Position numbers and translations under genes: made by a program | Notes under the pieces: model-generated | What the model saw: the letters and a program-made list of their open reading frames with translations, nothing else | What the model was told of the DNA's origin: nothing | Databases searched by the model: none | Shown here: one piece after another, positions 35,865 through 57,109 of the stretch | How positions within the stretch are numbered: the first letter of the stretch is position 1 | Layout of the letters: each line of letters begins with the position of its first letter | Source: Bacteroidales bacterium | GTDB taxonomy: Bacteria > Bacteroidota > Bacteroidia > Bacteroidales > JAIOZK01 | DNA: 64,000 nt | Reading direction: 5' to 3' | Assembly: GCA_021738625.1 (NCBI GenBank) | Contig: JAIPBS010000015.1 | Coordinates: forward strand, 1-64,000

Positions 35865-36977
35865 TCATTTTCGTCCAAGAGCCGGCAACAGGAATATAAA
35901 CTCGGAACCTGCTCCCGCTTTGCTTTCAACGCGAATACTGCCTGCATGGGCATCAATAATCTTTTTCACAATAGCCAGACCCAGGCCGGTGCTTTTCTCA
36001 TCGGCTGTGGGCCGTACCGAAGTTTTGGAAAAGGTTTTGAACAACAGGGGCAATTCCTTTTCGGGTATTCCCGGCCCCTGGTCCTTAACAGAAACCCGGG
36101 CATATCCCCCCTTTTCCTTAAGCTCAACCTCTACATTTGTCCCTGCTTCGGAAAACTTAACGGCATTGGATAGCAGGTTATTCATCACCTGCTCGATTTT
36201 ACCCATATCCGCATTTACCGGCAAACTATCCAAAGCCGTCTTTATATCGATCCGAATATCCTTCTTATCTCCAAAAGGTTTGTTCAGGCGAATTGACTTG
36301 CTTACAAGTTGAAGCAAGTCAAAAACTTCCATATCGAGCTTCACCTTGCCCGATTCAATGCGCGCAAAATCCAGCAGCTCATTCAACAGATCCAACATAA
36401 ACTGGCTTTGCGATTCAAGGGTTTTCAGGATATCCATTTCTTCATCATTCAATCTGTCGCGCAATTCATCCTGCAAATAATCGGAATATGACATAACCAG
36501 GCCGATTGGGTTGCGCAGATCGTGCGCGGCAACGCCCAGAAACTCATTCTTCTGCTCATTCATCTGCTGAAGTTCCGTGTTTTTCTTGTACAACTCACGG
36601 CTAAGATTATTCAGCTCATTGTTGAGCGCGAGTAATTCCTGTCTAAGTTTGACATTTTCTTTTTCACTTTGTTCGCCCAAAACCAAGGTAAGCTCATCAT
36701 CTGTTTTATAAAAACTGAAATAAAATGTTTCGGGAAGATTTTCGGGCGTTTTCACATTCAGCAAAAGGGGGCCATTGCTCTCCAACAGCTTATCCAGGCT
36801 CAATTCACCGGTAAAATCAAGAATAAGGTTCCGGATATTTTTACCCACAATCTCAGCACCCAATATCCGTTCGGCAAAAACATTGGATTTTTTAACAAAG
36901 CCCCTTTCATCCATAAGCATCATGATGATACTTGCATGCTCATTGACATATTTATTCAGGATAGCCGACTTCTTCAT
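35865..36977 (-). CDS. Sensor histidine kinase (PAS - coiled coil - HisKA - HATPase)
   Basis: HisKA H-box (GVAAHDLRNPIG), with N, G1 and G2 boxes (NLLSNAVKFS, DQGPGIP, GLGLAIVKKI). Confidence 0.85.
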   Translation of the reverse strand: MKKSAILNKYVNEHASIIMMLMDERGFVKKSNVFAERILGAEIVGKNIRNLILDFTGELSLDKLLESNGPLLLNVKTPENLPETFYFSFYKTDDELTLVLGEQSEKENVKLRQELLALNNELNNLSRELYKKNTELQQMNEQKNEFLGVAAHDLRNPIGLVMSYSDYLQDELRDRLNDEEMDILKTLESQSQFMLDLLNELLDFARIESGKVKLDMEVFDLLQLVSKSIRLNKPFGDKKDIRIDIKTALDSLPVNADMGKIEQVMNNLLSNAVKFSEAGTNVEVELKEKGGYARVSVKDQGPGIPEKELPLLFKTFSKTSVRPTADEKSTGLGLAIVKKIIDAHAGSIRVESKAGAGSEFIFLLPALGRK

Positions 36978-36983
36978 TGCGCA

Positions 36984-37622
36984 TCAATTGTAATTTCCAA
37001 TAAATGACTCGAGTTCCTCAAGGCTCAGGATCAATTTAACCTCATCCATATTTTTAATTAGATTTTGACCTCCCCATCTGAATGCCTGACCTCCGACAAT
37101 TATGGATTGGGACGGAAAGTTTTCCCTGATCAGATCGACCATTTCCTTCATCACGGAAAAATTAAAAGAAACGCTAACGGACAATGCGATGATATCGGGC
37201 TTCCTTTCACTGATCATCGACAACACCTCGCTTTGTGGGGTATTGGCCCCAAGGAAATACCCATCCCATCCGTTCATCTCAAAGATATCCGCAACCATGC
37301 GCGCCCCCACCTGATGATACTCATTGGCCAGGCATGTAACAACCGCTCTTCTCCCTTTTCGCTCGGTACTGAACATGTATGGGTAAACCATACTCATTTG
37401 CCGCTCCACCAGTGAAGTTGCCAGATGTTCTGTGGCTACGCTTAATTTGTTGTGCTCCCATAGTTCCCCCACCTGATAAAGTGCGCGCTGAAAAAGATCT
37501 TTATAGATTTGCCTTATTCCAACCTCCTGATCAATCAAATGGTTAACCGTTGCAACAACTGCTTGCCGGTCGCCATCTAGCAGGGCCTCGAAATATTTAT
37601 TGTAAAGCTGATCCGTTATCAT
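36984..37622 (-). CDS. Stand-alone CarH-type cobalamin (B12)-binding photoreceptor-like domain protein
   Basis: An N-terminal four-helix bundle carrying Wx9EH (ELWEHNKLSVATEHLA) plus a Rossmann B12-binding domain with ExHxxG (ANEYHQVGARMVADIF..GWD). No DNA-binding domain. The start overlaps the stop of the hybrid kinase at 37619..39559. Confidence 0.7.
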   Translation of the reverse strand: MITDQLYNKYFEALLDGDRQAVVATVNHLIDQEVGIRQIYKDLFQRALYQVGELWEHNKLSVATEHLATSLVERQMSMVYPYMFSTERKGRRAVVTCLANEYHQVGARMVADIFEMNGWDGYFLGANTPQSEVLSMISERKPDIIALSVSVSFNFSVMKEMVDLIRENFPSQSIIVGGQAFRWGGQNLIKNMDEVKLILSLEELESFIGNYN

Positions 37623-39559
37623 TTTCGCCCGTTAAGGTATTTTGCGATTGTATCGAGCAGTTGATTTCTCCTGATCGGTTTTTTCAAATAATCGTTGCAA
37701 CCCGACTCCAGCACTTTGTCCCTGTCGGTTGAAAGGGCGTAGGCTGTTTGCCCGATGATGGGAACCTGCTTATCCAGTTTGCGTATTTCACGCGTTGCTT
37801 CGTATCCATTGAGTTCAGGCATTTGAATATCCATTAGAATAAGATCAACTTTTGATTGTTTATCAAACATTTCGACAGCCACCTTCCCGTTCTCAGCTCT
37901 GATCACCTTTGCCCCTGTCGGTTGTAAAATGGTCTCCACATATAGAAAATTGGAATCGACGTCTTCAGCTACCAGGATCACTCTATCTTTGAAATTGTAT
38001 TCCCCGGCAGATTTCTCTTGCAGCAGCCCCTTCTTTTCTCGTTCATGCCTTTTTGCTTTAGAGGGCAAGGAAAAATAAAAAGTTGAGCCCTGATAGAGTT
38101 CGGATTCAAGCCACATGCGGCCACCCATTTTTTCGACCAGGCTTTTGGCAATGGTCAGTCCCAGCCCGGTTCCTCCAAATTCCCTGGTATTGCTGTCATC
38201 AACCTGTCTGAAACGTTCAAAGATCACGTCTTGTTTTTCTTTCGGGATGCCCAGGCCGGTATCCATCACCCGGATAACAATTTCGTCATTTTCAATATAA
38301 CAGGCCAACTCCACCAATCCACTTTCCGTAAATTTAAATGCATTGCCAACCAGGTTGCGGATGATCTGCTCAATCCGGCCCGGATCGGTTCTAACCTGGG
38401 TATCATTGGGGGTTTCAAGACGGAATTTGAATTCAACATTTTTTATCCGATCGTTGAATTCCCGCAAAAGACTTTGATATACATCGCCGACCAGATCATT
38501 GATATCGACCCATTTCCGATCAACTTCGAGCAGACCGGCCTCCAACTTTGCCACATCAATGATGTCGGTTATAATGCGCAAAAGGGTTTCACTGTTTCGC
38601 TGTATGTTTTTCGTAAAATCACGGACATCTTCGCGGTTGAAAGCAGGATCACCCAGCAGGTCGGAAAAACCGATAATGGCATTCATGGGCGTCCTGATTT
38701 CGTGCGACATATTGGCCAGGAAAGCAGTTTTAAGCTTATCGCTTTTCTCGGCTTCCTCTTTGGCCTTGATCAATTCCTCCCTGGCCTTCTTGAGTTCGGT
38801 GATGTCGGCAATGATACCATCCTGAAACAAGTGATCGCCATCCGAATTAAAAATGGTCCGGATATTAAATGAACCCCAAAAACTGCTCCCATCCTTTCTT
38901 AACAGTTCAATCTCATAATTTCTTACCAGTCCGTCCTCATTCAGTTTATCCAATAATGCCTCTCTTTCTTCAGGCCTGACATAATAATCCCGGATCGGTT
39001 TTTCAAGCGCTTGCTCCAGTTGTTCAAAACCAAACATTTCAAGATAGGACGGGTTGGCATACAGCAGATATCCATCCAGGGTAGAACGATAAAGGGCCAG
39101 GGGGACATTGCTGCGCAAGCCTTCAAAGGCGGATTCGGTTTCCCTGAGCTTTTCCTCTGTCCTGCGTTTCTTGTCTGTTTCCTCTTTTCGTTTGAGGGCC
39201 TGTTCGATGGCAGGAGGCAATCTGTAAAGGCGTTCTTTTACCACATAATCCCAGGCGCCCGACTTGATGGTCTGCGCCGCGGTTTCTTCATCCAGCGAAC
39301 CCGTAACGATGATAATAGGCAGATCGGGATTGATTTTTTGCAAGTCGCTGATGGCTGAAATGCCATCATACTGCGGCAGGCCATAGTCGGAGATGACCAG
39401 ATCGGGGGACTCACTCTTGATGGCTTCCAGGTAATCAATTTTGTTATCCACACTGTGGAAATCAAAATTGAATCCGGCTTTTCGGAGTTCGCGGCAAATC
39501 AGTTCCACGTCAGCCTTCAAATCTTCCAGTATCAATAGTTTAAGTTGCTTTATCTTCAT
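37619..39559 (-). CDS. Hybrid sensor histidine kinase (REC-PAS-PAS-HisKA-HATPase-REC)
   Basis: N-terminal REC (LLILEDLKADVEL...ISDYGLPQYDG), PAS modules, HisKA (ANMSHEIRTPMNAI), HATPase, and C-terminal REC (ILVAEDVDSNF...LMDIQMPELNG). Confidence 0.9.
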   Translation of the reverse strand: MKIKQLKLLILEDLKADVELICRELRKAGFNFDFHSVDNKIDYLEAIKSESPDLVISDYGLPQYDGISAISDLQKINPDLPIIIVTGSLDEETAAQTIKSGAWDYVVKERLYRLPPAIEQALKRKEETDKKRRTEEKLRETESAFEGLRSNVPLALYRSTLDGYLLYANPSYLEMFGFEQLEQALEKPIRDYYVRPEEREALLDKLNEDGLVRNYEIELLRKDGSSFWGSFNIRTIFNSDGDHLFQDGIIADITELKKAREELIKAKEEAEKSDKLKTAFLANMSHEIRTPMNAIIGFSDLLGDPAFNREDVRDFTKNIQRNSETLLRIITDIIDVAKLEAGLLEVDRKWVDINDLVGDVYQSLLREFNDRIKNVEFKFRLETPNDTQVRTDPGRIEQIIRNLVGNAFKFTESGLVELACYIENDEIVIRVMDTGLGIPKEKQDVIFERFRQVDDSNTREFGGTGLGLTIAKSLVEKMGGRMWLESELYQGSTFYFSLPSKAKRHEREKKGLLQEKSAGEYNFKDRVILVAEDVDSNFLYVETILQPTGAKVIRAENGKVAVEMFDKQSKVDLILMDIQMPELNGYEATREIRKLDKQVPIIGQTAYALSTDRDKVLESGCNDYLKKPIRRNQLLDTIAKYLNGRK

Positions 39560-39561
39560 AA

Positions 39562-40017
39562 CTATTCAGATTTGTAATCCGGTATCTCATTCATCAACAG
39601 CCAGTAAAGGCCGATCTCAGCGACGGAATCAACAAATTTATTGTAATCAACCGGTTTTACGATATAACTATTCACACCCAGTTCGTAACTTTTCACCATA
39701 TCACGCTCTTCACGCGAGGTGGTTAACACAACTACCGGAATGTTTCTGGTTCGCTCGTTGCTTTTCACTTTTTCAAGCACTTCCAGCCCGGTAACTTTCG
39801 GAAGCTTTAAATCCAGCAGAATCAATTTGGGTAATTCGTTGTTGTTTCTATCTTTAAAGGTGTTTCTACAAAAAATGTAATCAAGCGCTTGTTCTCCGTC
39901 GCGAACCACATGCATGCGCACACCGAGCTTGTGCTTTTTCAGTGCGCGTTCTGTAAGTTCCACATCGTTAGGATTGTCCTCAACAAGCAATATTTCTGCT
40001 TTTTCGCGTATTTCCAT
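39562..40017 (-). CDS. Single-domain response regulator of the phytochrome-associated (Rcp1-like) type
   Basis: ILLVEDNPNDVELTERAL...LLDLKLPKVTGLEVLEKVK...PVVVLTTSREERDMV...NSYIVKPVDYNKFVDSV closely resembles stand-alone REC partners of photoreceptor kinases. Sits 2 nt upstream of the hybrid kinase. Confidence 0.8.
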   Translation of the reverse strand: MEIREKAEILLVEDNPNDVELTERALKKHKLGVRMHVVRDGEQALDYIFCRNTFKDRNNNELPKLILLDLKLPKVTGLEVLEKVKSNERTRNIPVVVLTTSREERDMVKSYELGVNSYIVKPVDYNKFVDSVAEIGLYWLLMNEIPDYKSE

Positions 40018-40061: not shown

Positions 40062-41843
40062 TCATTCAGCATATGTTTTGGGTAGTGAGAAAGAAAAGCA
40101 GGCGCCCAGTCCGGGTTTGGCTTCCGCTTTCACCTCGCCTCCATGTTTTTTAACAATGCGTTTAACAAGCGCCAACCCAACGCCGGTTCCTTCAAATTGA
40201 TCGACTGTATGCAGACGTTGAAAAACATTAAAGAGCTTATCAACATATTTCATATCGAAGCCGACACCGTTGTCTTTGACTGAAATCCAGTGGTAAGCGT
40301 CGTTTTCTTCTGCCTTTATTTTTATTTGGGATTCACTTTCATTCCTTGTAAATTTAACGGCATTGGATATTAGGTTGAATAACACCTGCCTGATCAGATT
40401 TTCATCCCCTTCAACTTTCGGGAGAGGCGCTATATCAAAACTTAATTTTCTCTCTGCAGTTTCCTTGCTGACCTCATTTACAACATCATGCGTAATGCTT
40501 TGCAGGTCCAGCTTTCTTTTTTTCAGTTTTTTTCTTCCTGCTCTTGAAAAGTCCAGCAGATCCTGGATCAGATCGCCCATTTTCTGGGTATTTTCCCGCA
40601 CAATACGGAGGTACCTTTTTCCGTCTTCATTCAGTTTATCGGTATAATCTTCGAGCAAGATTTGAGAAAATCCGTCAATGGCCCTAAGGGGAGCCTTCAG
40701 GTCGTGGCTAACCGAATAGGAAAAAGCTTCCAGTTCCTTATTCACCTCTTCCAGCTTTTTGTTGATCCTGTTCATTGCTTCCCGGCTTTCATTCACATCT
40801 TCCAGCAAATAGGTCAGTGCCAACTGAGACTTTTCCAGGTCTTCTTTTTGATTTTTCAGTTCGCTTGTTCTTTTGTTAACGACCTGTTCGAGGTCCTTCG
40901 AGTAATCTTCAATTTTTTGTGCAGCTTTTTTCCGTTCAGAGATATCCCTTGCGACAATTAAAACATCATCTTCCTTGTTTTCACTTCTCATAATGGAAGA
41001 ACTAACCTCAACAGGTATATAGTCACCATCGGAATTAATGAATACCGATTCATACAAAAAAATTGCCTTTTCGTCTTTCATTCTTTTTTGTTGCCGGGCA
41101 ATGGTTTTCTTTCTGTATGAGGGCGCCACATAATCCATCACATTTGAACCGATCACATTGTGGGGGCCTTTACCGATCAGGTTCAAACCAGCCTGGTTTA
41201 AATATTTTATTTCGCCCTTGAGGCCGTGTATGCAGATGATATCACGGGCAGTTTCGGTGAGCAATCTATATCTGCGTTCGCTGGTTTTCAGGGCATTTTC
41301 CGCTTCCCTTACCTTTGTAATATCCTGGCCGAACTCGGCAACACCTATGATCCCGCCATTTTTATTTTTCACGGGTACGGATTTAAAACGATATATTTTC
41401 TCCCCTACCTTGACTTCTCTGTAATTTGTTTTTTTATTTTCCAGGGATTCCAACACGTGACAATTCCAGCAATGCGCATCCTGCCCTTCACGCCACACCG
41501 TATAGCAAATTTCTCCAATGCATTTATGAGCACGGTGCCCCAGATAATTAACTGCTGCCTGGTTGAGTATTTTAATCCTCAAATCCTTATCGTAATAGAA
41601 AAACAGATCATCAAGCGAATCTAAAATCCGGCTTCGCTCCGTCTCCAATCGTTCAAGCTTTTCATTCATCTGCCAAATGATGTCATAGCTATTTTCATAA
41701 ATCAACCTGATGTTTTCTTCTTTGTATTCAGGTTCTGTTCCCTTTTCGGATTCCAGCCCGGCATTCTCTTGCAGTTCAATAATTTTAGAAATCAACTGCT
41801 TTTTTGTAAGCTTGTAGTAACGTCTTATTTTTGCTTCGTCCAT
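40062..41843 (-). CDS. Multi-PAS sensor histidine kinase with a Cys/His-rich PAS insert
   Basis: PAS domains, HisKA (SVSHDLKAPLR), HATPase. The first PAS carries C108..C113..H124-C125-W-N-C128-H129 (CxxCH). Confidence 0.85.
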   Translation of the reverse strand: MDEAKIRRYYKLTKKQLISKIIELQENAGLESEKGTEPEYKEENIRLIYENSYDIIWQMNEKLERLETERSRILDSLDDLFFYYDKDLRIKILNQAAVNYLGHRAHKCIGEICYTVWREGQDAHCWNCHVLESLENKKTNYREVKVGEKIYRFKSVPVKNKNGGIIGVAEFGQDITKVREAENALKTSERRYRLLTETARDIICIHGLKGEIKYLNQAGLNLIGKGPHNVIGSNVMDYVAPSYRKKTIARQQKRMKDEKAIFLYESVFINSDGDYIPVEVSSSIMRSENKEDDVLIVARDISERKKAAQKIEDYSKDLEQVVNKRTSELKNQKEDLEKSQLALTYLLEDVNESREAMNRINKKLEEVNKELEAFSYSVSHDLKAPLRAIDGFSQILLEDYTDKLNEDGKRYLRIVRENTQKMGDLIQDLLDFSRAGRKKLKKRKLDLQSITHDVVNEVSKETAERKLSFDIAPLPKVEGDENLIRQVLFNLISNAVKFTRNESESQIKIKAEENDAYHWISVKDNGVGFDMKYVDKLFNVFQRLHTVDQFEGTGVGLALVKRIVKKHGGEVKAEAKPGLGACFSFSLPKTYAE

Positions 41844-41870: not shown

Positions 41871-43394
41871 CTAATCCGTATCATTATCTTTACTTGTTCC
41901 CAACTGAGATTCAAGCTTTTTCATTCGTTCTTTAAGTTCATTAATCCTGAATTCCCTGTCAACAAACAGCTTATTGAAATGCTTGAGTTCCTTATTTTTC
42001 TCCACAAGGCTATTGTTTGCTTGTTCTAATTCTGCGGTTCTTTCACGAACCAGTTCCTCCAGCTTCTCTTTATGTTGCTGAACCTCTTCCTTTGCCATGT
42101 GAAGTTCTGTAACATCCATAACCGTTGAAACCATGGTGTTTTGATCGAACAATGGAATATTGACTGCATTGATAAACCGTTTATTACCATCTTTTGTTGT
42201 GGCTACAATATTCTCCCAGTGCATGCGGGAGGGATCACCGGAGGCAACATCTTGTTTTACCTGGGCTGCAATCTTTTCCCTGTAAGTCCTATCAGGATAT
42301 GCTTTTTCAAAAAAACTATTGATATCTTTCAAATCTTCTCTAGGCCAGCCGTATATTTCAGAAAACTTATCATTAATATAGGTGGCGATTCCTTCATCAA
42401 ACTCATTCAATGCAAGGCCAATAGGAAGATTGTCAAGCACGGTTTCAACAAATTGATTTTGCTTTTCGAGAGCCAATTTTACCTTAACCCTTTCAGTAAC
42501 ATCCTGCACCGTTCCGGTTATTATTGTCACTTTACCGGATTTATTCTTAACCGGTGTTCCTATGGCATGATAATAAGCTATTTTTCCATTAGGCAAATTA
42601 ACGCTTAAATCAATGTCGTAAGGCTTTGATTTCGTTACAGCGTTGCTGATGCATTTTTCAAGCGCCTTCACATCTGTGGGACTATGATAAGCCATCACCT
42701 CCTTGTAATCAGGCGGACCCAGTTTGGGATCGCGTTCATACAATTCATACATCATATCGGCCCACCATACCTTGCCTTTCTCAACATCAAATTCCACATG
42801 TCCGATCCGGGCAATTCTCTGAGCTTCACTGAGTCTTCTTTCGTTTTCCTGCAAAGCTATATCAGCATTTTTCTTATCAATGACCAAAGAGGCATGCTGA
42901 ATAAACGCTTCTATTTCACCGAAATTTGATGTATCGGTTTGTGGCTTGGTGAGTATGCTGATATTGGCAAATACCTTTGCGTTTCTTCTAATTGCCATGC
43001 AATACAATTCTTCCAACGACAGCAGTTTTTTCACCTTTTCGGCACTTGATTTATTGATCTTATTTCCGAAAAACAAAGGAAGGTTCAACTCCACCTTCAC
43101 CAATTTACCTTTGATGATCTCATAGTAAAAATCCGTTTTGATCTTCCCCCTGATCTTCCTGAAATCGAAACCCAGGAGATCGATAACTTTATGCATTTGA
43201 TTGCCGACGCCTTTGATCGCATGCAATTTCCAGAAATCATCTTCCGTATCATAATCAACAAGGGTCACAATGCCTCGACCACCCATCATCCGGTATATCT
43301 CCTCAACCAGATATTTGTACACCTCATCAATGGAACTTAACTCCTGCAAATAGAGGATTGTTTTGCCTAAATCAATATGATCGGTTTTGCCCAT
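41871..43394 (-). CDS. Kinase-less GAF/PAS signalling protein with C-terminal coiled coil
   Basis: GAF-like N-terminus, two PAS domains, no H-box or ATPase. C-terminus ...LVRERTAELEQANNSLVEKNKELKHFNKLFVDREFRINELKERMKKLE. Confidence 0.75.
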   Translation of the reverse strand: MGKTDHIDLGKTILYLQELSSIDEVYKYLVEEIYRMMGGRGIVTLVDYDTEDDFWKLHAIKGVGNQMHKVIDLLGFDFRKIRGKIKTDFYYEIIKGKLVKVELNLPLFFGNKINKSSAEKVKKLLSLEELYCMAIRRNAKVFANISILTKPQTDTSNFGEIEAFIQHASLVIDKKNADIALQENERRLSEAQRIARIGHVEFDVEKGKVWWADMMYELYERDPKLGPPDYKEVMAYHSPTDVKALEKCISNAVTKSKPYDIDLSVNLPNGKIAYYHAIGTPVKNKSGKVTIITGTVQDVTERVKVKLALEKQNQFVETVLDNLPIGLALNEFDEGIATYINDKFSEIYGWPREDLKDINSFFEKAYPDRTYREKIAAQVKQDVASGDPSRMHWENIVATTKDGNKRFINAVNIPLFDQNTMVSTVMDVTELHMAKEEVQQHKEKLEELVRERTAELEQANNSLVEKNKELKHFNKLFVDREFRINELKERMKKLESQLGTSKDNDTD

Positions 43395-43541: not shown

Positions 43542-46500
43542 TCATTCCTGCACTTTTTTCTCCAGTTCCTTCACTTTCTCACGCAACTCCTTAATCCTGA
43601 TTTCACGGCCCACGAACAATTTATTCATCCGTTCAACTTCTTTGTGTTTGTCTTCAATTTCCGCGGTTCGTTCCTTAACAAGATCTTCCAGATGCTGTCT
43701 GTGCTTATCCAATTCGTTTCGTATTTCAATATCTTTTGTCACATCCCTGAGTATTGAAACCATGCCAATGATCTCTCCTTCATAGTTTTTAACTGCCGAA
43801 GAAACAACCTCGCCAATGAATGCATTGTTTTTAGCAGTTTTCATATGATAGCGGTTAATACCAAGGAATTCACCCTTCATAATGCTGCTTACATTGCGTT
43901 TGGCAAAGTCCTGATCTCGGTCATCAATCCAATCATTAAGGTGAGTCCCAATAATTTTCTCCTGATTTGTTTTAAGGATTTTTCCCATATTCGGTGAAAC
44001 AAACTCAATTTCACCCCTGAGGTTTGAAAAGGTGATGGAATCAGGACTGGCTAAAACAAGTGATTTATACAATTCTTCACTTTCGGCCAGGGCCATGGTT
44101 GCCTTTTTTCGTTTCGTGATATCAGTTAAACCACCAACAATGGCAATTGTCTTTCCATTTCTTACCAGCGGGGCCTCATGTACCTCAACCCAAACCTTTT
44201 TTCCATTTTTATGCCTTAATTCCAGTTGGTAGGTTGGCTGTGGTTCGGCTTTCTCAATAGCCTTCACGGTTAAACCATATCCTATTTCATTAATGGGATT
44301 TTCTGTTGCAAGATCCATCCAGACTTCCGGGATCTCTTTTGGGGTATATCCCAGAATATCTTCAACTTGCGGACTCACATAGGTTAGTTTATGATCGGTG
44401 GTATGGCTGTAAAACATATTGGTGCTGTGCTCAATGATATTGCGAAGCTTTTCTTCACTCTCTTTAAGCTCCCGTTCGGCTTTTTTTCTTTCCGAAATAT
44501 CTGTATGCGTTCCCACCACGCGGATCGCCTTGCCGTTTTCATCGAAAACAGCTTCGGCTTTGGAGAGTATGTCCACCCAATGCCCCTCTTTATGTTTCAT
44601 TTTGAACTCCATCTCAAAACGATCTCTTTTGCCGGCTAAATGCTCTTTCAGCATTTCCCATGATTTCTTTGCATCCTCAGGATTAGTCAGTGTTTCCCAA
44701 ACCGAAAAACTGTTTTCCAGCTCATCTTGAGCATAGCCCAACATACCTTTCCAGCGGGGGGAATAATATATTTCATTGGTTTCAAGGTTCCAGTCGTATA
44801 GTCCGTCATTTGCAGCATTCATGGCCAGGTTAAAACGCTCCTCACTTTCCTTAATTTGTCTTTGGGCTTCCAGCTTCTCGGTGATTTCCAAGAACATCAC
44901 TGCAACAATCATGGGGGAGGTTTGGAAGGCATACACCTCAAAAGCCCCCTTAATTCCTTCATGGTCATAGTCGATCTGATCGGTAAACCAGGAACGGCCA
45001 GTCCGGGCAATTTCCCGGTATATTTCCGGCACTTTGGTTTCGATAAGCCCCGGGAATGCTTCTTCTATGGTTTTCCCGACAAACCGGCTGCAATCCGTTT
45101 CCAGCATAGCATTGCCGGCTTCGTTGTAGCCAGTGAATAATAGGCGGTCGTTGTCCCGAAGCTCATAGGTCAGCGTGCCCATGGGTGTTGATTCGATGAT
45201 GTTTCTGAAGCGTTTCTCGCTTTCTTTTAAAGCCTCTTCGTAATTTTTTCTTTCAACAATCTCACCAATCAGTTGCGCCGATGTTGCCAGCCTTTCTTTT
45301 GCCAAATCAATGATAAATGCGGGACGCGTTTCATATTTTTCCGATTTCTCCTTTAAACGCTCGAATGAAACCTGATACTTTTCAGCAATTTTCTTCAATT
45401 CCGCATCATCTTTGGGCGGATCGCCATATCCAAAATTGATCGCTCCGATCACCTTTTTATTGGCAAGGATTGGAATGGCATAAAGATTCAACCCTCCGGC
45501 GCATTCAATATCGACAGCCTTCTGTTTTTCCATACATTGCAAAGAAGCATCCTTCCAACAGGATTCATGACAATGCCATTTTCCCGAATCGAGGGCTTCC
45601 TTGTTGTTGCATCCTTGACAAAGATTCCTGGAAGCCTCATCCATAAAACTGCACCATTCAGAAGAGAAAATCCCAACCGCATAATCTCCGTTTATCTCAT
45701 AAACCGCTGCCGAAGTCTCCAGTAAATCCAGGTAATCGGAAACGATTTCATTCAGCATTTTTTCACCGACAGCCTCAAGGATGGTACGTTGGGTATTGAG
45801 TTTTCTCAGATCGCCATATGCCGGGATATGCGGTTCTTTTTTCTTTGATTTGGGGTTAAGCAGCCACTCGATCTTTTTCAGCTCTTTTTCGGCCATATGT
45901 TTTTCGGTGATATCTTCCCCTGAGCTAAGGGTTCCTGTTATCTCACCATTTTCTCCCTGCAACAGGCTGTTATGCCATGCAATCATTCTTATTTCGCCGC
46001 TCCGGGATACAACAAAGTTTTCGACATACTCAAGCTGTTCGAGTTTCCCTTTCATGATGTCGTTGAAAACATCCTTTATTTTGGAGATATTATCTTTTAG
46101 TAAAAAGCTATCAAACCAGTTCTTGCCAACGATCTCATCCTCGCTGTAACCCAGTATTTCTGCTGCCTTTTTATTCGCCAGGGTTACAATGCCTTCCTGG
46201 TTGATCGCGACAAACATCACTCCTGCCACATCAAGATAATGTTGAGCGCGGTTTCTCTCAATTTTAAGCTGCTCATTTGTCTTTAGGATCAGCTCATTAC
46301 GTTCGGCCAGTTCTTCGTTTTGGGTTTGAAGTTCTTCATTTTGGGTAGCGATCTCTTCGTTCTTTTCCTGAATGATCTCTTCCGATCTTTTCGCTTCGGT
46401 AATATCTCTCCAAATGGTATATATACTTTGATCGGGAGCTGTGGGCAGGTATGTAAGGGAAACATCAATCCAGCGCTCTTTGTTGTTTTTGTCGGTATGC

Positions 46501-47441
46501 AACCATTCAAACCGCTGATAACCCTTTTTTATCGCATCACGAATGTAAGCTTTTGCCTTTTTTTGTGAATCTTCTCCATCGGCCTGCTTGGGAGGAGATA
46601 CCTCCCATGGTTTTTTCCCGACAATCTCTTCATAATCTTTATAACCCAAAAAATCCAGGGCGGCCTGATTTGCCTCCACAAATTGATCTCCCTGCAACAT
46701 TAGGCTTGGATCGGTTGATTCTTCAAATAGCAAGCGATATCTCTTTTCGCTTTTTTGAAGTTTCACATATAAATCCTCAAGTTCTTCATTGGTTTGTCTC
46801 AGCTCTTCATTGATGGCCTGAAACTCATGGTTTTGCTTATCTAACCTTCTATTCTGTTTTTGTATTCTTTCATTTTTTCTTTTAAGGTCAAGCTGTGTGT
46901 TTTTTAACTGGCTGATATCCGTGATAACAAGCATGATCCGGTCGGCATAATGAAGGTCGTTTAAATGTCTGGCACTGATCCTGACATGAACCCGTAGGTT
47001 GTGGTGGTTTAATAGATCAACTTCCAGACTGGCATCTCCTTTCTTTTCAACCAGGCTTTTTAAAAGCCTGTAAAAGTCATCCTGGTCATCGGGATGAACA
47101 AAGCTAGAAAAGGGCTGCGACAGCAGGCGGGAACGTTCAAGCTCTAACAGATCAACTGTTGCCAGGTTGGAGTTGGTTATCCGAAGGTTCTTGTCGAGGG
47201 TAATTAAAGATTCGGGTGAAAACTCAAACAGATCGTTGTATTTCTCTTTTTCAATATGGTGGTTTTCTTCAGACTTTCTGAGTTCTTCGTTTTGAAGATC
47301 CATTTCAATTTGATAAACATTGAGTTCTTCTATCAGTCTTTCCAGTTTGTGGGCGTATTTTCTGAAGTTTTCCACCCGGCCTCTTTCCTGAAGAAGCTTT
47401 TCGACCTTTTGCCGGAGTTGATTGGTTTTGCTTGAAGGCAT
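43542..47441 (-). CDS. Kinase-less multi-PAS/GAF signalling protein (1299 aa) with cysteine-rich sensory insert and C-terminal coiled coil
   Basis: At least seven PAS-like modules and a GAF/PocR-like module containing seven Cys and two His in about 50 aa (EWCSF..LCQGCNN..WHCHESC..LQC..IEC). No HisKA or HATPase. C-terminus ...LVKERTAEIEDKHKEVERMNKLFVGREIRIKELREKVKELE. Confidence 0.75.
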   Translation of the reverse strand: MPSSKTNQLRQKVEKLLQERGRVENFRKYAHKLERLIEELNVYQIEMDLQNEELRKSEENHHIEKEKYNDLFEFSPESLITLDKNLRITNSNLATVDLLELERSRLLSQPFSSFVHPDDQDDFYRLLKSLVEKKGDASLEVDLLNHHNLRVHVRISARHLNDLHYADRIMLVITDISQLKNTQLDLKRKNERIQKQNRRLDKQNHEFQAINEELRQTNEELEDLYVKLQKSEKRYRLLFEESTDPSLMLQGDQFVEANQAALDFLGYKDYEEIVGKKPWEVSPPKQADGEDSQKKAKAYIRDAIKKGYQRFEWLHTDKNNKERWIDVSLTYLPTAPDQSIYTIWRDITEAKRSEEIIQEKNEEIATQNEELQTQNEELAERNELILKTNEQLKIERNRAQHYLDVAGVMFVAINQEGIVTLANKKAAEILGYSEDEIVGKNWFDSFLLKDNISKIKDVFNDIMKGKLEQLEYVENFVVSRSGEIRMIAWHNSLLQGENGEITGTLSSGEDITEKHMAEKELKKIEWLLNPKSKKKEPHIPAYGDLRKLNTQRTILEAVGEKMLNEIVSDYLDLLETSAAVYEINGDYAVGIFSSEWCSFMDEASRNLCQGCNNKEALDSGKWHCHESCWKDASLQCMEKQKAVDIECAGGLNLYAIPILANKKVIGAINFGYGDPPKDDAELKKIAEKYQVSFERLKEKSEKYETRPAFIIDLAKERLATSAQLIGEIVERKNYEEALKESEKRFRNIIESTPMGTLTYELRDNDRLLFTGYNEAGNAMLETDCSRFVGKTIEEAFPGLIETKVPEIYREIARTGRSWFTDQIDYDHEGIKGAFEVYAFQTSPMIVAVMFLEITEKLEAQRQIKESEERFNLAMNAANDGLYDWNLETNEIYYSPRWKGMLGYAQDELENSFSVWETLTNPEDAKKSWEMLKEHLAGKRDRFEMEFKMKHKEGHWVDILSKAEAVFDENGKAIRVVGTHTDISERKKAERELKESEEKLRNIIEHSTNMFYSHTTDHKLTYVSPQVEDILGYTPKEIPEVWMDLATENPINEIGYGLTVKAIEKAEPQPTYQLELRHKNGKKVWVEVHEAPLVRNGKTIAIVGGLTDITKRKKATMALAESEELYKSLVLASPDSITFSNLRGEIEFVSPNMGKILKTNQEKIIGTHLNDWIDDRDQDFAKRNVSSIMKGEFLGINRYHMKTAKNNAFIGEVVSSAVKNYEGEIIGMVSILRDVTKDIEIRNELDKHRQHLEDLVKERTAEIEDKHKEVERMNKLFVGREIRIKELREKVKELEKKVQE

Positions 47442-47606: not shown

Positions 47607-48335
47607 TTAAATCAAAAAGCTCAGATCGCTTCTGGGCTCAAATTCTTTAGGCTCCTCACCAAACTTAAACAACCTCAGGGGTTTTGCACCGCCCAATGTA
47701 ATTTTGCCATCCTCGACAAGCAGGTAGGAACTTTCCCGTAAACCGGCTACGGTGATCTCCCGGTTCACCACCAGGAATTCCTCAATCCGTTGCTGCCTGG
47801 TTTCGCCTGCATGACCGTCAGGATTTGCATCCAGATAATGAGGATTGATCTGGAAGGGGATCAGGTTGAAACAACCGAAGTTTTCGGGCTCGATAATAGG
47901 CATGTCGTTGGTTGTTCGCAAACTGGGGCAGGCCACGTTTGAACCGGCGCTCCAACCCATATAAGGGGTGCCCTCCAAAACTTTTTCACGAATGGCTTTC
48001 ATCAGCCCGAGCTTATGAAGCATATAAACCAGGTAAAAGGTATTGCCTCCTCCAACAGCAATGGCTTCGGCATCTTCAACCGCCCGTATGGGATTCTCGA
48101 ACTTATGTATCGAATATAGGTCGTAGCCGATTTCGCTGTAAACCGCTTTTACTTTCTTTTCGTATGCATCGAAGGAATGTTCCAGGCTTTCGTCAGAGAG
48201 CCCAACTCCCGCAAAGGGGATAAAAAGCACACTTCTTGCTTCCGTTCCGTTGAGGAATTCTTTAATGGCCTCCCGGGGCCAACCCAGGTATTCTTCTCCT
48301 GCATTCGTAGAATTACTGATCAATAACAATTTCAT
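47607..48335 (-). CDS. pepE: Dipeptidase E (peptidase S51)
   Basis: Collinear with E. coli PepE (LLLISNST...FIPFAG...VGGGNTF...GWSAGSNVACP..TTNDMPI..FQINPH..GHAGETR). Confidence 0.85.
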   Translation of the reverse strand: MKLLLISNSTNAGEEYLGWPREAIKEFLNGTEARSVLFIPFAGVGLSDESLEHSFDAYEKKVKAVYSEIGYDLYSIHKFENPIRAVEDAEAIAVGGGNTFYLVYMLHKLGLMKAIREKVLEGTPYMGWSAGSNVACPSLRTTNDMPIIEPENFGCFNLIPFQINPHYLDANPDGHAGETRQQRIEEFLVVNREITVAGLRESSYLLVEDGKITLGGAKPLRLFKFGEEPKEFEPRSDLSFLI

Positions 48336-52390: not shown

Positions 52391-55108
52391 TTAATTTTGT
52401 GTGTCTTGCCCATCATCCGTTTTTGGACCGCCTGAAAGATTCAGCTTTACGATTTGCCAACGGTAAGACCTTTTAAAAAAGCTAAACCACTTTTCGGAAT
52501 GCGTATAATTTTCAATTTTTTGTTTGTAGTCGATCTCGCTTTCCGGCTGATAATCATCCAGGGCAAGTGCAATGCCAACCGCTTTCTGCTGGTCAACAGT
52601 TTCGTGACGCGACAGACCCATTTCTTTCAGCACAAAAAGCATTTGTAGCGCAGGACGGGGGCGGCTGCTATTCATAAAATATCCGATGCTTGCAAATACG
52701 AGATCCGGGCTTTGTTGTTCAAGTAGAAATTGTTCGAAATGATCGTGCCTTATACCATAGCGTGTAATGTTGTTTTGAATATAAAACGTATCCAGGCGAA
52801 GATACTCAGGGATGACTGCAGAAAAGCCCTGCTCAAAGATATTATCCCTGATCCGTTTCATGCTTTTCTGATATTCGGAAACGGTAGCATATTTCTGAAT
52901 TGCTTGCAATGGGATACTATCTGTAAAATCACATTCATCCAGGGTTTTAAGTAGGTTCAATGCTTTTAAAAACTGCTCTTCCGCAGCCACGAAATCCCGT
53001 TTATCAACCAGGTTGAAACCCTGCATCACCACTTTTTCATAATCATTGATCCGTTTGTCGCAAATTAAAATATTCAGTTTCTCCCTGATTTTGTTCAGCT
53101 CCGTGCGATAATAAGGATCCAATTCGAGCCGGTAAAGTTGCATGTGTTCCTGCAAGCGTGTGAATTTGGGATAGGCATTTTGCAGGTCCTCGTTCCATAT
53201 GCTGAAACTAACCTCATACAGAAGCTTATCTCCAAGCATCCTTGCTGCTTTTTCGATGAGGCTGTCGATATTTGTAAACTGCGAGGCGTCAAGCGCTTTA
53301 TTGTCCCGAAGCTTGTTCAACTCTTCAAGCGCCTCCTTATATCCGCCCTTTCGGATCAGTTTTTCGCATTGGGAGATCAGTGCGATTTGGGCGGTGAATT
53401 CCACCTGATCAATATTTTTTCCAGGTTGGGATTGCACCACATCTTCATCCCCGTGTTTGTCAGCCTGGTATTGTTCCGCTTTATTCAACCATTTTCGGGC
53501 GGCTGAATACTCGCCTTTATTGAAAAGGGCACTGGCTTCGGCCAGGCATTTTTCATACATGGCCTGCCAGGCCTTAAGCTTAAGTTCACTGTAATTTTTT
53601 CGATTTAGCTTTACCGCAGGATTTTCCTCAATGATCTGTCTGGATTTGTCCAGATTTGCCAGTGCATCCTCATAATACTTTTTGTCGATCAAAGCAGCCG
53701 CATCCTTAAGGTAAGCATCAGCCATTTTACCATAAGCATTCCAAATCCCAAGTTTGTTGATGATATGCTTGCTGTTGTTTTCCTGGAAATTTTCTGCACG
53801 ACTCAGATAGATTTCCGCCATACTGTAATTACCGACCTCAATTGCCTTGATCGCCACGCTGAGCAATGAATTGTACAGACCGCTGATGGCTCTGGCCTGC
53901 TTGGTCCGTATCAAATCCCTGTTGCATTCGGCTTCCGTCGAATTGCAGAAGGAATTAAGTCCCTCAACAAATTCAAGGGCTTCATTGTAGTTCTCATTTC
54001 CAATACAATAATCGATCAGGATGAGATAGTTTTCGTAAAACAGTTTACTCATCCCGGCAATGTCCGGTTCAGTATCGATTTTATATTTCAGCAGGCGTTG
54101 CAGATTGCTGAAAAAATCCTTGATCTCTTCGCTGCTGTATTTCCTGGAAAGCAGGTCGTAAAAGGAATTCTCAAAGTAATGGCCGGCTTTGGAAGCCATG
54201 TGCATATATTGCTCAAGCTGCTTAAAATAAGGATAAAAATAATTACCGGGAACCCCTGCCCGGGCAACTCTTTGTTTGTTATAAATCTCTTGCTCAAACA
54301 ATGTATTCAGCCGCCCCGTTTTTAAACTAAAATCCTGTAGTTGATTGTAGAAGAATAAAGGATCATGATCCCGGTTGATATTGAGTTCGGTAAGAAATAC
54401 CTTTCTTGCAAGTATCTTATAAACCTGTTTAAAATCGAAAGGCAGGACTGCAAATTTCAGCAGGGCGTCATCTGCACCTTCATCCAGCTTCTTGAGTTGA
54501 TCAAGCAGTTGATCCAGGATCATGGACGATCCGTAATAATCGTTGATCAAGTCCATTCTCCGGACAAAGGCTTTACGGTCTTCCTGGCTGTAATAAAAGC
54601 GCAAGTCAGAAAGCTCAAGTCTAAGGTCCGCATTCCCGGTTCTGAACCGGATTGCGGCACTGATCCCCTTTCCGTTCAGATTTGCTGTTATGGTTTTTGC
54701 GAGAACGATCCGATCCTCTTTATCAAAACAATAAACCCGGAACTCGGCCATGGAGGGTTGTAAAATATCGGCAATATCGAATTTTCTGTAGGCCGTCGCT
54801 CCCTGAACCTCGGCAACATGAATATCAACAATAGCTTCCAGGATGTTTTCTTTCTCAAGAATATCGAGATCAGCGGTATATCCAAGAGAATAATTGACTG
54901 AAGAAACAGCCATCCCTTGCGATAAGGCAATTTCGTTTATAAAATAGGAGGTATTGAAAGATTTCGCATCAGGATGACTAATATTGGAAAAAACATATTT
55001 CCCACTGATCTCATTATGAAACAGATTTTTACCCTGTGCGAAAACAATATCCTGAAATGGAAAGCAAAGCAACAAACAAGCAATAAGCCTAAAAATCATG
55101 TAAAGCAC
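52391..55108 (-). CDS. Large secreted hypothetical protein (alpha-helical, TPR-like)
   Basis: 905 aa with signal peptide (CFPFQDIVFAQ) and a Y/A/L-rich helical repeat character. It is the first gene of the co-directional array, 71 nt upstream of the giant kinase. Confidence 0.5.
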   Translation of the reverse strand: MLYMIFRLIACLLLCFPFQDIVFAQGKNLFHNEISGKYVFSNISHPDAKSFNTSYFINEIALSQGMAVSSVNYSLGYTADLDILEKENILEAIVDIHVAEVQGATAYRKFDIADILQPSMAEFRVYCFDKEDRIVLAKTITANLNGKGISAAIRFRTGNADLRLELSDLRFYYSQEDRKAFVRRMDLINDYYGSSMILDQLLDQLKKLDEGADDALLKFAVLPFDFKQVYKILARKVFLTELNINRDHDPLFFYNQLQDFSLKTGRLNTLFEQEIYNKQRVARAGVPGNYFYPYFKQLEQYMHMASKAGHYFENSFYDLLSRKYSSEEIKDFFSNLQRLLKYKIDTEPDIAGMSKLFYENYLILIDYCIGNENYNEALEFVEGLNSFCNSTEAECNRDLIRTKQARAISGLYNSLLSVAIKAIEVGNYSMAEIYLSRAENFQENNSKHIINKLGIWNAYGKMADAYLKDAAALIDKKYYEDALANLDKSRQIIEENPAVKLNRKNYSELKLKAWQAMYEKCLAEASALFNKGEYSAARKWLNKAEQYQADKHGDEDVVQSQPGKNIDQVEFTAQIALISQCEKLIRKGGYKEALEELNKLRDNKALDASQFTNIDSLIEKAARMLGDKLLYEVSFSIWNEDLQNAYPKFTRLQEHMQLYRLELDPYYRTELNKIREKLNILICDKRINDYEKVVMQGFNLVDKRDFVAAEEQFLKALNLLKTLDECDFTDSIPLQAIQKYATVSEYQKSMKRIRDNIFEQGFSAVIPEYLRLDTFYIQNNITRYGIRHDHFEQFLLEQQSPDLVFASIGYFMNSSRPRPALQMLFVLKEMGLSRHETVDQQKAVGIALALDDYQPESEIDYKQKIENYTHSEKWFSFFKRSYRWQIVKLNLSGGPKTDDGQDTQN

Positions 55109-55416: not shown

Positions 55417-55561
55417 TGATGTTTTTAATGAACGCCGCTTTTTCAAAAGCAAGTGCAAAATTATAAAAAATTAACAAAATGATAAATCTTTAAATAAGTT
55501 TAATTCATATCCATGATGCTACGATTTTATATTTTTGCAAATCAAACCTAAACAACAGATT

Positions 55562-57109
55562 ATGTTTAGTCAAAAAGACAGACAGCAGATCGAAGCAAAA
55601 GGCATTGGCCTTGAAACCATTCAAAAGCAAATCGAACATTTTGAGGAGGGCTTTCCCTGGGTCCGGCTGGTAGAACCGGCAAGGGTGGGCAATGGCATCA
55701 TTTCTTTTAATGATGAAGAAATTGAAGCCCTTGAAAAATCCTACAACCTGCATTCCGGTCAAAAAGATGTTTTGAAGTTTGTTCCGGCCAGCGGAGCAGC
55801 CACACGCATGTTTAAACATCTTTTCGCTTTCCTGGAAAAATATGAGAACAATGAGGAAGGACATAAATACTATCTTTCTGATAAAGAATTCAATTCGGTT
55901 TATTACTTCATTACCAACATCCAAAAATTTGCCTTTTACAACGAACTGAAAGAGATCATGAAAGCTGATGGCCTTGATCTTGAAGATTGCATTAAGAATC
56001 AGGATTATGATGTGGTCATCGATTATGTATTGAATGAAAAAGGCCTGAATTATGCAAGCCTCCCCAAAGGACTGATCAAATTCCATGATTACCCTGACGG
56101 CGCCCGGAAATCGGTGGAGGAACATCTGGTGGAAACTGCCAATTATTGCCGCGACAGAAAAGGAAAAGTTCACCTTCATTTCACGGTTTCTCCCGAGCAT
56201 ATTGATCACTTCAAACAAACCATAAAAGAAGTCAAAGGGAAATACGAAAAACAACTGAATGTTGAATTTGAGATCGAGTTTTCTGTTCAAAAACCTTCTA
56301 CCGATACCATCGCGGTTGACATGGAGAACAAACCTTTCAGGGAGGTGGACGATAGCATGCTGTTCAGGCCCGGCGGGCACGGCGCCTTGATCGAAAACCT
56401 AAACGACATCGACCACGATATCATCTTCATTAAAAACATCGATAACATTGTGCCCGACAAGCTTAGGGACGAGACTTACAGATACAAAAGAGTGATCGGC
56501 GGGCACCTTATCAGTATTCAGGAGAAAGCATTCCGCTACCTCGAAAAGCTTGAGGGTGATTTTGCAGATATGCAATTGCTTGAAGAAATCGCTGATTTTG
56601 CCACCAACGATTTGACTATAGATATCCCAAAGGATTTTAACAACTATGGTTCTGCTGAAAAGAAAGAGTTCCTGTTTAGGAAACTGAACCGGCCCATCAG
56701 GGTGTGCGGCATGGTGAAAAACGAAGGCGAACCCGGTGGAGGCCCGTTTTGGGTGAAACAAAAGAACGGCGAAATTTCCCTACAAATCGTTGAAAAATCT
56801 CAGATCAATCTCGACGACAGCGGGCAACAGATGATCCTTAACCAAAGTACTCATTTCAACCCGGTTGACATCGTTTGCAGCATACGAAACTACAAAGGCA
56901 AAGCATTCGACCTGCACGAATTCGTCGATCCTGAAACGGGCTTCATTTCCATCAAATCGAAAAACGGAAGAAGCCTGAAAGCGCAGGAGCTGCCGGGTTT
57001 ATGGAACGGCGCCATGGCCGACTGGAACACCGTTTTCGTGGAAACACCCATCATCACTTTCAACCCGGTGAAAACGGTGAACGACTTGCTGCGCCCCACA
57101 CATCAATAA
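55562..57109 (+). CDS. Conserved hypothetical protein (DUF4301-like)
   Basis: N-terminus MFSQKDRQQIEAKGIGLETIQKQIEHFEEGFPWVRL matches, from my recollection, the Bacteroidota DUF4301 family. Start moved to this Met. Confidence 0.5.
   Translation: MFSQKDRQQIEAKGIGLETIQKQIEHFEEGFPWVRLVEPARVGNGIISFNDEEIEALEKSYNLHSGQKDVLKFVPASGAATRMFKHLFAFLEKYENNEEGHKYYLSDKEFNSVYYFITNIQKFAFYNELKEIMKADGLDLEDCIKNQDYDVVIDYVLNEKGLNYASLPKGLIKFHDYPDGARKSVEEHLVETANYCRDRKGKVHLHFTVSPEHIDHFKQTIKEVKGKYEKQLNVEFEIEFSVQKPSTDTIAVDMENKPFREVDDSMLFRPGGHGALIENLNDIDHDIIFIKNIDNIVPDKLRDETYRYKRVIGGHLISIQEKAFRYLEKLEGDFADMQLLEEIADFATNDLTIDIPKDFNNYGSAEKKEFLFRKLNRPIRVCGMVKNEGEPGGGPFWVKQKNGEISLQIVEKSQINLDDSGQQMILNQSTHFNPVDIVCSIRNYKGKAFDLHEFVDPETGFISIKSKNGRSLKAQELPGLWNGAMADWNTVFVETPIITFNPVKTVNDLLRPTHQ

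Follow-up and report, generated by a model that had tools for sequence, protein, structure and literature searches.

Two adjacent minus-strand genes in a 64,000-nt stretch of a Bacteroidales metagenome-assembled genome (MAG; contig JAIPBS010000015.1, positions 1 to 64,000, hereafter the window) encode sensor proteins of 507 and 1299 amino acids, placed by open reading frame (ORF) calling, translation and Pfam at 41871..43394 and 43542..47441, respectively. Both terminate in the same conserved coiled coil of some 45 residues, here called the tail, which is best explained as a module that stands in for the transmitter (DHp plus catalytic domain) across a large family of receptors without a kinase. 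Tail genes are tightly and reciprocally linked with genes of a histidine kinase subfamily marked by a five-heptad 'LLED' insert. From sequence and gene order, we put at roughly 55% the probability that tail proteins are detachable sensors acting in trans, by direct helix contact, on the LLED kinase encoded downstream. On this reading, the system would be an accessory sensor for a histidine kinase, built from the known S-helix. Within the libraries and the text search used, the tail sequence, its breadth and its pairing with LLED kinases appear not to have been described before.

A previous sequence-only reading of this DNA had described both proteins as kinase-less, and indeed Pfam detected neither HisKA nor HATPase in them, but only PAS domains, accompanied by PocR in the 1299-aa protein. 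The smaller protein consists of a ~190-aa N-terminal region, two PAS domains and the C-terminal module; Pfam assigns no domain to its residues 1-190, possibly a sensor of divergent GAF or PAS type. The larger one is laid out as an N-terminal coiled coil, PAS domains, PocR, more PAS domains and the module. Their translated C-termini read ...HKEKLEELVRERTAELEQANNSLVEKNKELKHFNKLFVDREFRINELKERMKKLESQLGTSKDNDTD and ...HRQHLEDLVKERTAEIEDKHKEVERMNKLFVGREIRIKELREKVKELEKKVQE, respectively, in agreement with the earlier proposal that both end in an ERT-type S-helix followed by a conserved extra helix.

Translation and regular-expression searches located the module of the 507-aa protein, i.e., HKEKLEELVRERTAELE, an extra heptad and KNKELKHFNKLFVDREFRINELKERMKKLE, at 41910..42074 on the minus strand, and its core motif LFVDREFRINELK at 41931..41969. 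The module of the 1299-aa protein, HRQHLEDLVKERTAEIEDKHKEVERMNKLFVGREIRIKELREKVKELE, maps likewise to 43560..43703 (minus strand), with the core motif LFVGREIRIKELR at 43581..43619. Written by segments, the tails are ...LEELVRERTAELE-QANNSLV-EKNKELKHFNKLFVDREFRINELKERMKKLE... in the former and ...LEDLVKERTAEIE-DKHKEVERMNKLFVGREIRIKELREKVKELE... in the latter. The two share the core consensus LFV(D/G)RE(F/I)RI(N/K)EL(K/R), and the core expression yielded no third match in a six-frame translation of the whole window. The ER of the ERT signature (KERTAEIE in the 507-aa and RERTAELE in the 1299-aa protein) lies at 42039..42044 and 43668..43673, respectively; the range 41871..42010 first quoted for the shorter protein covers the motif but falls just short of ERTAELE. 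The Lys of ELK is followed by 24 residues in the 507-aa protein and by 12 in the 1299-aa protein. Spacing between ERT and GRE is 28 residues in the 507-aa protein and the canonical 21 in its neighbor. Across the family this distance is 21 in 98 of 121 sequences, 28 in three (the 507-aa protein included) and 14 in one, and the 28-residue spacing is thus a rare variant that carries one extra heptad.

Downstream of ERT, tails run in a fixed order: a KNKELExF stem, the block N-K-L-F-V-G-R-E-(F/L)-R-(I/M)-K-E-L-K, two canonical zipper heptads and the stop codon. Numbering from the ERT Arg as position 0, core positions are occupied by L at 4 and 11 (both a), F/M at 14 (d), F at 18 (a), R at 21 (d), I/M at 25 (a), L at 28 (d), V/I at 32 (a) and L at 35 (d). 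The R and T of ERT are invariant in 300 family sequences, L-7, V-3, L4 and L11 are in a/d phase, and the hydrophobic a/d phase is continuous from ERT onward, position 20 included. Coming precisely three heptads after the ERT Arg, the GRE Arg thus occupies a core 'd' position and therefore forms a second polar core layer. Between N15 and L28 nearly all residues are conserved irrespective of their heptad place, among them the near-invariant outward-facing N15, V19 (b), F/L23 (f), R24 (g) and E27 (c). Such outward-facing conservation, as far as an alignment can tell, fits a specific binding surface rather than a generic zipper. AlphaFold2, run in monomer mode with an 84-sequence alignment, predicted a single straight helix for the C-terminal 67 residues of the 1299-aa protein (residues 2-66, pLDDT 97), unkinked at the conserved G/D/N of position 20; this model is silent on the oligomer state.

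A profile derived from four tail sequences retrieved 239 proteins with a best E-value of 2e-24, and a second one (36 sequences, 57 positions), run with HMMER against 1.84 billion protein cluster representatives, produced 9,732 matches at E<=1e-3 and 2,170 at E<=1e-10. Given these values, the likeness of the window pair is far beyond chance, and the motif, which had been suggested as a possible family marker within Bacteroidota, does define a family that reaches well beyond this phylum, into ~12 phyla, with thousands of members in anaerobes. The best 150 profile matches, in proteins of 76-1248 aa, all end within about 15 residues of the C-terminus. A scan of one genome per GTDB species with the pattern F[VI][GD]RE[FL]R[IM][KVA]E identified 408 confirmed sites in Bacteroidales/Prolixibacteraceae, Desulfobacterota (Geobacter, Syntrophales, Desulfobacteraceae), Cloacimonadota, Calditrichota, Nitrospirota, Chlorobiota, Verrucomicrobiota, Aminicenantes, Chloroflexi and Methanoperedens. 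In 79 loci from these ~12 phyla, more than 100 occurrences were all found 10-28 residues before the stop codon, with a single exception at 3 residues, and a hidden Markov model (HMM) of the motif alone revealed no significant internal copy. Several loci contain tandem runs of two to four tail genes, as the window does. MEDS proteins ending in the same tail (...NKAFVGRELKMVELKERIRELE...) are encoded at L024:775-1650, in L063 (442-aa ORF) and in L053 (224-aa ORF); the strict pattern missed these, and the count of tandem tail genes is therefore too low. An ERT-less variant at L039:11915-12565 (plus strand), ...DITKRKKAEEELREKMNELEAFYRATLGREGRVIELKQEVDGLLEQLGENKKYTNI, keeps the F-x5-GRE-x-R-xx-ELK spacing directly after NELEAF and has a longer tail, which suggests, at the level of sequence, a superfamily wider than the current profile captures. 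On the other hand, we discarded the idea of stand-alone microproteins, raised by first searches that returned only matches of 43-117 aa: the two that were checked, 'hypothetical proteins' of 58 and 66 aa composed only of S-helix and tail (L080:2865-4177 and L082:2916-4201), turned out to be the C-terminal remains of sensor genes that are frameshifted or mis-called and comprise a periplasmic domain, a transmembrane (TM) segment and, in part, PAS. Automatic names such as 'nucleic acid-binding Zn-ribbon' and 'chromosome segregation ATPase' attached to pieces of this type are coiled-coil artefacts.

Pfam analysis of 83 complete motif proteins further revealed PAS in 66, a receiver domain (Response_reg, REC) in 11, GAF in eight, SBP_bac_3, Phosphonate-bd, Cache and HAMP in five each, PocR in three, CHASE8 in two and MASE3 in one, with HisKA or HATPase in none of the 83. 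These architectures are those of ordinary sensor kinases with the tail in the transmitter's place. The smallest members are reduced to REC-coil-tail (217-227 aa), two TM helices plus tail (147 aa), GAF-tail (150 aa) and MEDS-tail (291 aa); since such minimal forms hold nothing else, only the tail could carry their output. No entry of Pfam (E<=10), NCBIfam or the PDB sequence profiles covers the tail, which gave only generic sub-threshold matches at the coiled-coil or S-helix level, and a full-text literature search for 'FVGRE' returned nothing relevant. Of the features that define an S-helix, tails display the ERT with Arg at 'd' and a heptad-periodic helix of ~40 residues; they depart from it in context, as only a 25-residue block and a 10-28-residue end lie downstream, with no second domain. 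Assignment to the LOV proteins failed as well: NCBIfam YtvA_fam, which has a cut-off of 250 bits, scored 17.6 and 36.1.

The gene immediately downstream of the 507-aa tail gene (40062..41843, minus strand; ORF calling, translation and Pfam) encodes a 593-aa PAS-PAS-HisKA-HATPase histidine kinase, the predicted partner. NCBI names this kinase and both tail proteins alike 'PAS domain S-box protein'. Translation and regular-expression matching resolved its linker (40704..40871, minus strand) into ERT, the five-heptad LLED insert, an NKELEAF stem and an H-box whose His comes 55 residues after ERT. This same stereotyped linker is present in 22 of the 35 ERT-bearing kinases of related loci, where the distance from ERT to the H-box His is 20, 27, 48, 55 or 62 residues, 55 being by far the commonest. 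Tails and the kinases with 20-residue spacing have in common an ungapped ERTxxLExxNKELExF in the same register, such that the tail ERTAELEEKNKELERFNKLFVGREFRIKEL is collinear and near-identical with this kinase form up to Phe 14 and divergent beyond. Profile comparison with hhalign aligned the 15 stem columns in register (P=2.7e-4, probability 42%) and did not extend past Phe. Tail proteins and LLED-type kinases therefore, by their sequences, share the S-helix and the pre-H-box stem, a short zipper replacing the H-box and everything after it. Net charges are opposite, on average -2.4 +/- 1.7 for the acidic LLED insert and +1.4 +/- 1.2 for the basic tail.

We then examined the genomic neighborhood of tail genes. 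In motif-centred loci, 80 of 98 downstream neighbors are encoded in the orientation of the motif gene, and 20 share 1-14 bp with it. Position +1 is taken by a kinase gene in 25 of the 98 and by another motif gene in at least 11; at positions -3 to -5, kinases account for 6-9%. LLED inserts were found in 24 of 29 +1 kinases versus 10 of 66 other kinases of the same loci, and an N.EL..F stem with an SHDL H-box in 20/29 versus 6/66 (Fisher p=6e-9 for the stem comparison). In the reciprocal test, metagenome contigs were scanned with the LLED pattern alone and non-identical LLED kinases with a complete 5' end were retained: a same-strand tail gene lies directly upstream of 25 of 39 such kinases but of only 2 of 35 other kinases (p=1e-7), with overlaps of 1-29 bp in 11 of the 25 pairs. 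Tail genes and LLED kinases are thus linked in both directions and are often coupled in translation. Recent duplication does not account for the adjacency, as the sensor region of each paired gene has a closer relative than that of its partner. Clustering of 387 neighbors within three genes of the motif genes yielded no recurrent family except two-component proteins, and REC-only genes are enriched at +2/+3. The window holds a canonical pair, i.e., the 507-aa tail gene, 27 bp and the 593-aa LLED kinase gene, with the 1299-aa tail gene just upstream, and it displays the sequence and gene-order regularities of the proposed pairing: a terminal motif, ERT-GRE spacings that are multiples of seven and a same-strand LLED kinase downstream. 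Two other ideas about the downstream gene were abandoned. A split kinase is at odds with the catalytic core of downstream kinases, which starts at residue 227 or later and never comes first, and an N-terminal zipper as receptor is present in only about 7 of the 98 downstream neighbors.

Collectively, these observations anticipate a mechanism in which the tail protein would form a parallel dimer whose input domains, PAS in the window, alter the state of the helix pair; the pair would then relay this state, through direct contact, to the histidine kinase whose gene comes next downstream and which is recognizable by the acidic LLED insert between its own S-helix and the H-box. In the window, the 507-aa and probably also the 1299-aa protein would be additional, separable sensors whose signal enters the 593-aa kinase and from there reaches the adjacent receiver proteins. 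Candidate contact sites are the LLED insert, the S-helix or stem, and the PAS domains. Regulation of neighboring kinases in trans, as envisaged in the sequence-only reading, thereby gains strong though indirect support from the reciprocal pairing; the part of that proposal in which the helix plugs into the DHp bundle fares worse, as pairing tracks the LLED insert. That this insert is the docking site is speculative and draws on correlation, similar length and charge complementarity only. A broader version, in which the FVGRE tail would be a widespread 'plug' that docks receptor dimers with any input (PAS, REC, Cache-HAMP, periplasmic binding (SBP), MEDS or bare TM) on the LLED 'socket', the resulting four-helix bundle setting the state of the kinase, is a tentative extension that we would give well under even odds. 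If it were true, several interchangeable sensors could share one kinase, a modular design of three components that would be common in anaerobic Bacteroidota, Desulfobacterota, Cloacimonadota, Verrucomicrobiota and some archaea.

Several observations weigh against tail proteins being sensors for the LLED kinases. About a third of LLED kinases have no upstream motif gene, and ~70% of motif genes are not directly followed by a kinase, some being coupled to further motif genes. In L006, L014, L021, L026, L065 and L068, the tail gene overlaps by 4 bp a gene for a signal-peptide-bearing periplasmic binding protein, the families coupled in this manner being SBP_bac_3, Phosphonate-bd and NMT1. LLED insert and tail coexist in one chain in a few proteins (P0109, L140 and L143), and this arrangement in cis shows common descent and weakens a simple plug-and-socket version. 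Backing of the stem homology by hhalign is modest at the probability given above, and conservation at F18, V19, R21, E22, R24, E27 and L28 is in part a product of the patterns by which the sequences were gathered. Finally, the loci come mostly from MAGs, with ORFs called by a simple script.

Among the alternatives, one envisages an Id-like dominant-negative heterodimer, in which a motif protein, whose last PAS-S-helix-stem segment is almost that of the partner kinases, pairs one-to-one with a kinase monomer to build an incomplete DHp bundle that leaves the kinase silenced or re-tuned. The three window proteins do agree in PAS-to-ERT spacing (25 residues, counted from DxT/S to the ERT R), the ERT...NKELExF stem is common to both partners and the genes are paired. 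However, the kinases contain the 35-residue LLED insert, present in only 3 of 121 motif proteins, and the stems would therefore be out of register; besides, the kinase offers no input domain to match the REC, transmembrane or Cache inputs of other motif proteins. We consequently deem this heterodimer unlikely. A simpler proposal takes the tail as a mere dimerisation clamp, with action through the PAS domains (ligand buffering or PAS-PAS contacts) or no output whatsoever, and adjacency as a sign of co-regulation. The last two heptads (I25, L28, V32 and L35) are a canonical zipper, as this proposal would have it, and weak matches are limited to generic coiled-coil families. Nonetheless, a clamp would neither hold N15, V19, G20, F23, R24 and E27 near-invariant across phyla, nor fix the 21-residue spacing to ERT, nor pair specifically with one kinase subfamily, and the minimal REC- or TM-only forms offer no other output surface. 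It is likewise an improbable account.

The data speak against the remaining three readings. Folding of the tail into a hairpin at the conserved G/D/N, which would generate a His-less mini-DHp four-helix bundle for docking response regulators or catalytic domains, could be conceived from the residues at position 20, typical of helix caps, from the rough symmetry of the conserved block about this position and from the resemblance of GRE(F/L)R to SH(D/E)LR with a one-residue shift. Yet the AlphaFold2 monomer is an uninterrupted helix across the G (pLDDT 97-99) with no loop, the heptad phase is unbroken there, and HisKA (PF00512) matched none of eight tails even at E<=10, all of which makes a hairpin very unlikely. 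HisKA_2 (PF07568) matched one tail along its PAS-S-helix part, weakly and below threshold (E 0.053; 14 bits versus a cut-off of 22.3). Tails lack a phospho-acceptor His, its place being held by G-R-E, one residue off S-H-D; we do not retain GRE(F/L)R as a residue-level remnant of SH(D/E)LR, which is unproven and needs a shift of one (SHDL) or three residues (SHEL).

A bZIP-like helix that binds nucleic acids, turning these proteins into one-component regulators, is hinted at by weak matches to bZIP, H-NS_N and TMF_DNA_bd and by JGI automatic names that include 'nucleic acid-binding Zn-ribbon' and 'H-NS'. All those matches are below threshold (E 0.08-8 for bZIP_1/2), as is usual for any charged coiled coil, the segment preceding the zipper, ELERFNKLFVGRE, is not a basic region but of mixed charge (+1.4 net), and many members are membrane-anchored, so that DNA binding has next to no credibility.

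Least credible of all, the 507-aa and 1299-aa genes could be kinases truncated by frameshift or nonsense mutation, pseudogenes or assembly errors, a suspicion nourished by the 58-66-aa database ORFs that really are pieces of frameshifted sensor genes and by the 507-aa TAG being in frame with the kinase start nine codons on, yet dismissed by the space downstream of either stop, too short for HisKA or HATPase and free of any trace of them or of an H-box in every frame, by the completeness of the 593-aa kinase with PAS domains of its own and by the thousands of homologues with the same ending. The 507-aa stop is separated from the next start by 27 bp, and the 147 bp located 3' of the 1299-aa stop contain stop codons in all frames; the HisKA remnant cut off by a frameshift that had been proposed as a counter-explanation is accordingly absent. 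The TAG at 41871..41873 and the ATG of the 593-aa kinase at 41841..41843 are separated by nine sense codons, and read-through would generate a fusion; we judged the shared frame a coincidence, since other loci show overlaps of 1, 4 or 8 bp, which place the partner gene in another frame. The description of tail proteins as degenerate kinases, also put forward earlier, holds in an evolutionary sense only, by virtue of the stem common with LLED kinases: they are neither frameshifted nor decaying, as selection maintains the module in thousands of proteins, always with the same ending.

Comparison with known systems places the tail protein between several precedents. The S-helix is a ~40-residue parallel coiled coil with ERT and an Arg at core 'd' that directly follows PAS, GAF or REC inputs and is expanded in Geobacter-type and PocR/MEDS sensor repertoires (Anantharaman, Balaji, Aravind 2006, PMC1592074). 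The first half of the tail is the same element, with ERT, Arg 'd' and its location after PAS, GAF or REC, whereas the helix of the tail is terminal, extended by ~25 conserved residues (the second Arg 'd' layer plus zipper) and devoid of a catalytic domain. With the pre-H-box stem of HisKA kinases, such as the 593-aa protein, identity is confined to ERTxxLExxNKELExF: past Phe, kinases go on to the H-box, DHp hairpin and ATPase, and motif proteins to NKLFVGREFRIKELK and the stop. Short LOV proteins also consist of a PAS core and a C-terminal J-alpha helix without effector, and the effector of PmSB-LOV, PmlR2, is adjacently encoded (PMC9758184). Such photoreceptors are PAS sensors whose C-terminal helix is the sole output element and signals in trans to a neighbor-encoded protein, as proposed here for the tail. 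The LOV helix, however, has another sequence that contains neither ERT nor FVGRE, it acts on a LitR/CarH transcription factor in place of a kinase, and the family is small, as opposed to the many inputs of tail proteins. Control of a histidine kinase through contact with a non-phosphorylating kinase-like sensor is known from RetS-GacS (PMC12148439) and the pseudokinase DivL (PMC4211667). RetS and DivL, however, retain full DHp and CA-like domains, whereas tail proteins have only a coiled-coil stub and a predicted partner with a special linker insert. In BvgS-family kinases, stability and register of the two-helix coiled coil between PAS and DHp decide the output (PMC5829827). Those linkers act in cis within one polypeptide, and tail proteins are proposed to do so in trans.

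Many sensors deposited as 'PAS domain S-box protein' have no known signal output, and a large share of them, on the order of 10^4 clusters at 50% identity, end in the tail helix. Pairing of tail and LLED kinase provides a concrete, testable route from such 'orphan' sensors to a phosphorelay output. Annotation pipelines could use both the family and the gene-pair rule, and the short helix might be reused to couple engineered sensors to kinases. Should the docking model be wrong, the module would still be an unannotated conserved element in need of explanation.

The tail genes belong to a minus-strand signalling string that encodes, in order, proteins of 1323, 242, 1299, 507, 593, 151, 646, 212 and 370 aa, as annotated with Pfam. 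The 1323-aa product is a PAS-GAF-HisKA-HATPase-REC hybrid kinase. Between its gene and that of the 1299-aa tail protein, on the same strand, sits the gene for a 242-aa S51 peptidase of the cyanophycinase/dipeptidase E type (47607..48335). Downstream of the 593-aa kinase are a 151-aa single-domain response regulator (Response_reg, 39562..40017), a 646-aa PAS-HisKA-HATPase-REC hybrid kinase (37619..39559) and the 212-aa B12-binding protein with its 370-aa kinase (35865..37622), all on the minus strand. The 212-aa protein is a stand-alone B12-binding protein (B12-binding_2 plus B12-binding) encoded 6 bp upstream of the kinase, which has only a short PAS-like N-terminus. These two genes look like another two-gene split of sensor and kinase, with cobalamin or light as possible input. 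Two minus-strand ORFs by the signalling island, of 905 aa (52391..55108) and 291 aa (55505..56380), had no Pfam match at E<=1e-5. The 1299-aa protein carries two more coiled-coil linkers, LNVYQIEMDLQNEELRKSEE and EIATQNEELQTQNEELAERNE, at residues ~40-65 and 355-385. A QNEEL-type helix is often found N-terminal to PAS domains, and these proteins draw on a small vocabulary of linker helices comprising QNEEL, ERT, LLED and FVGRE.

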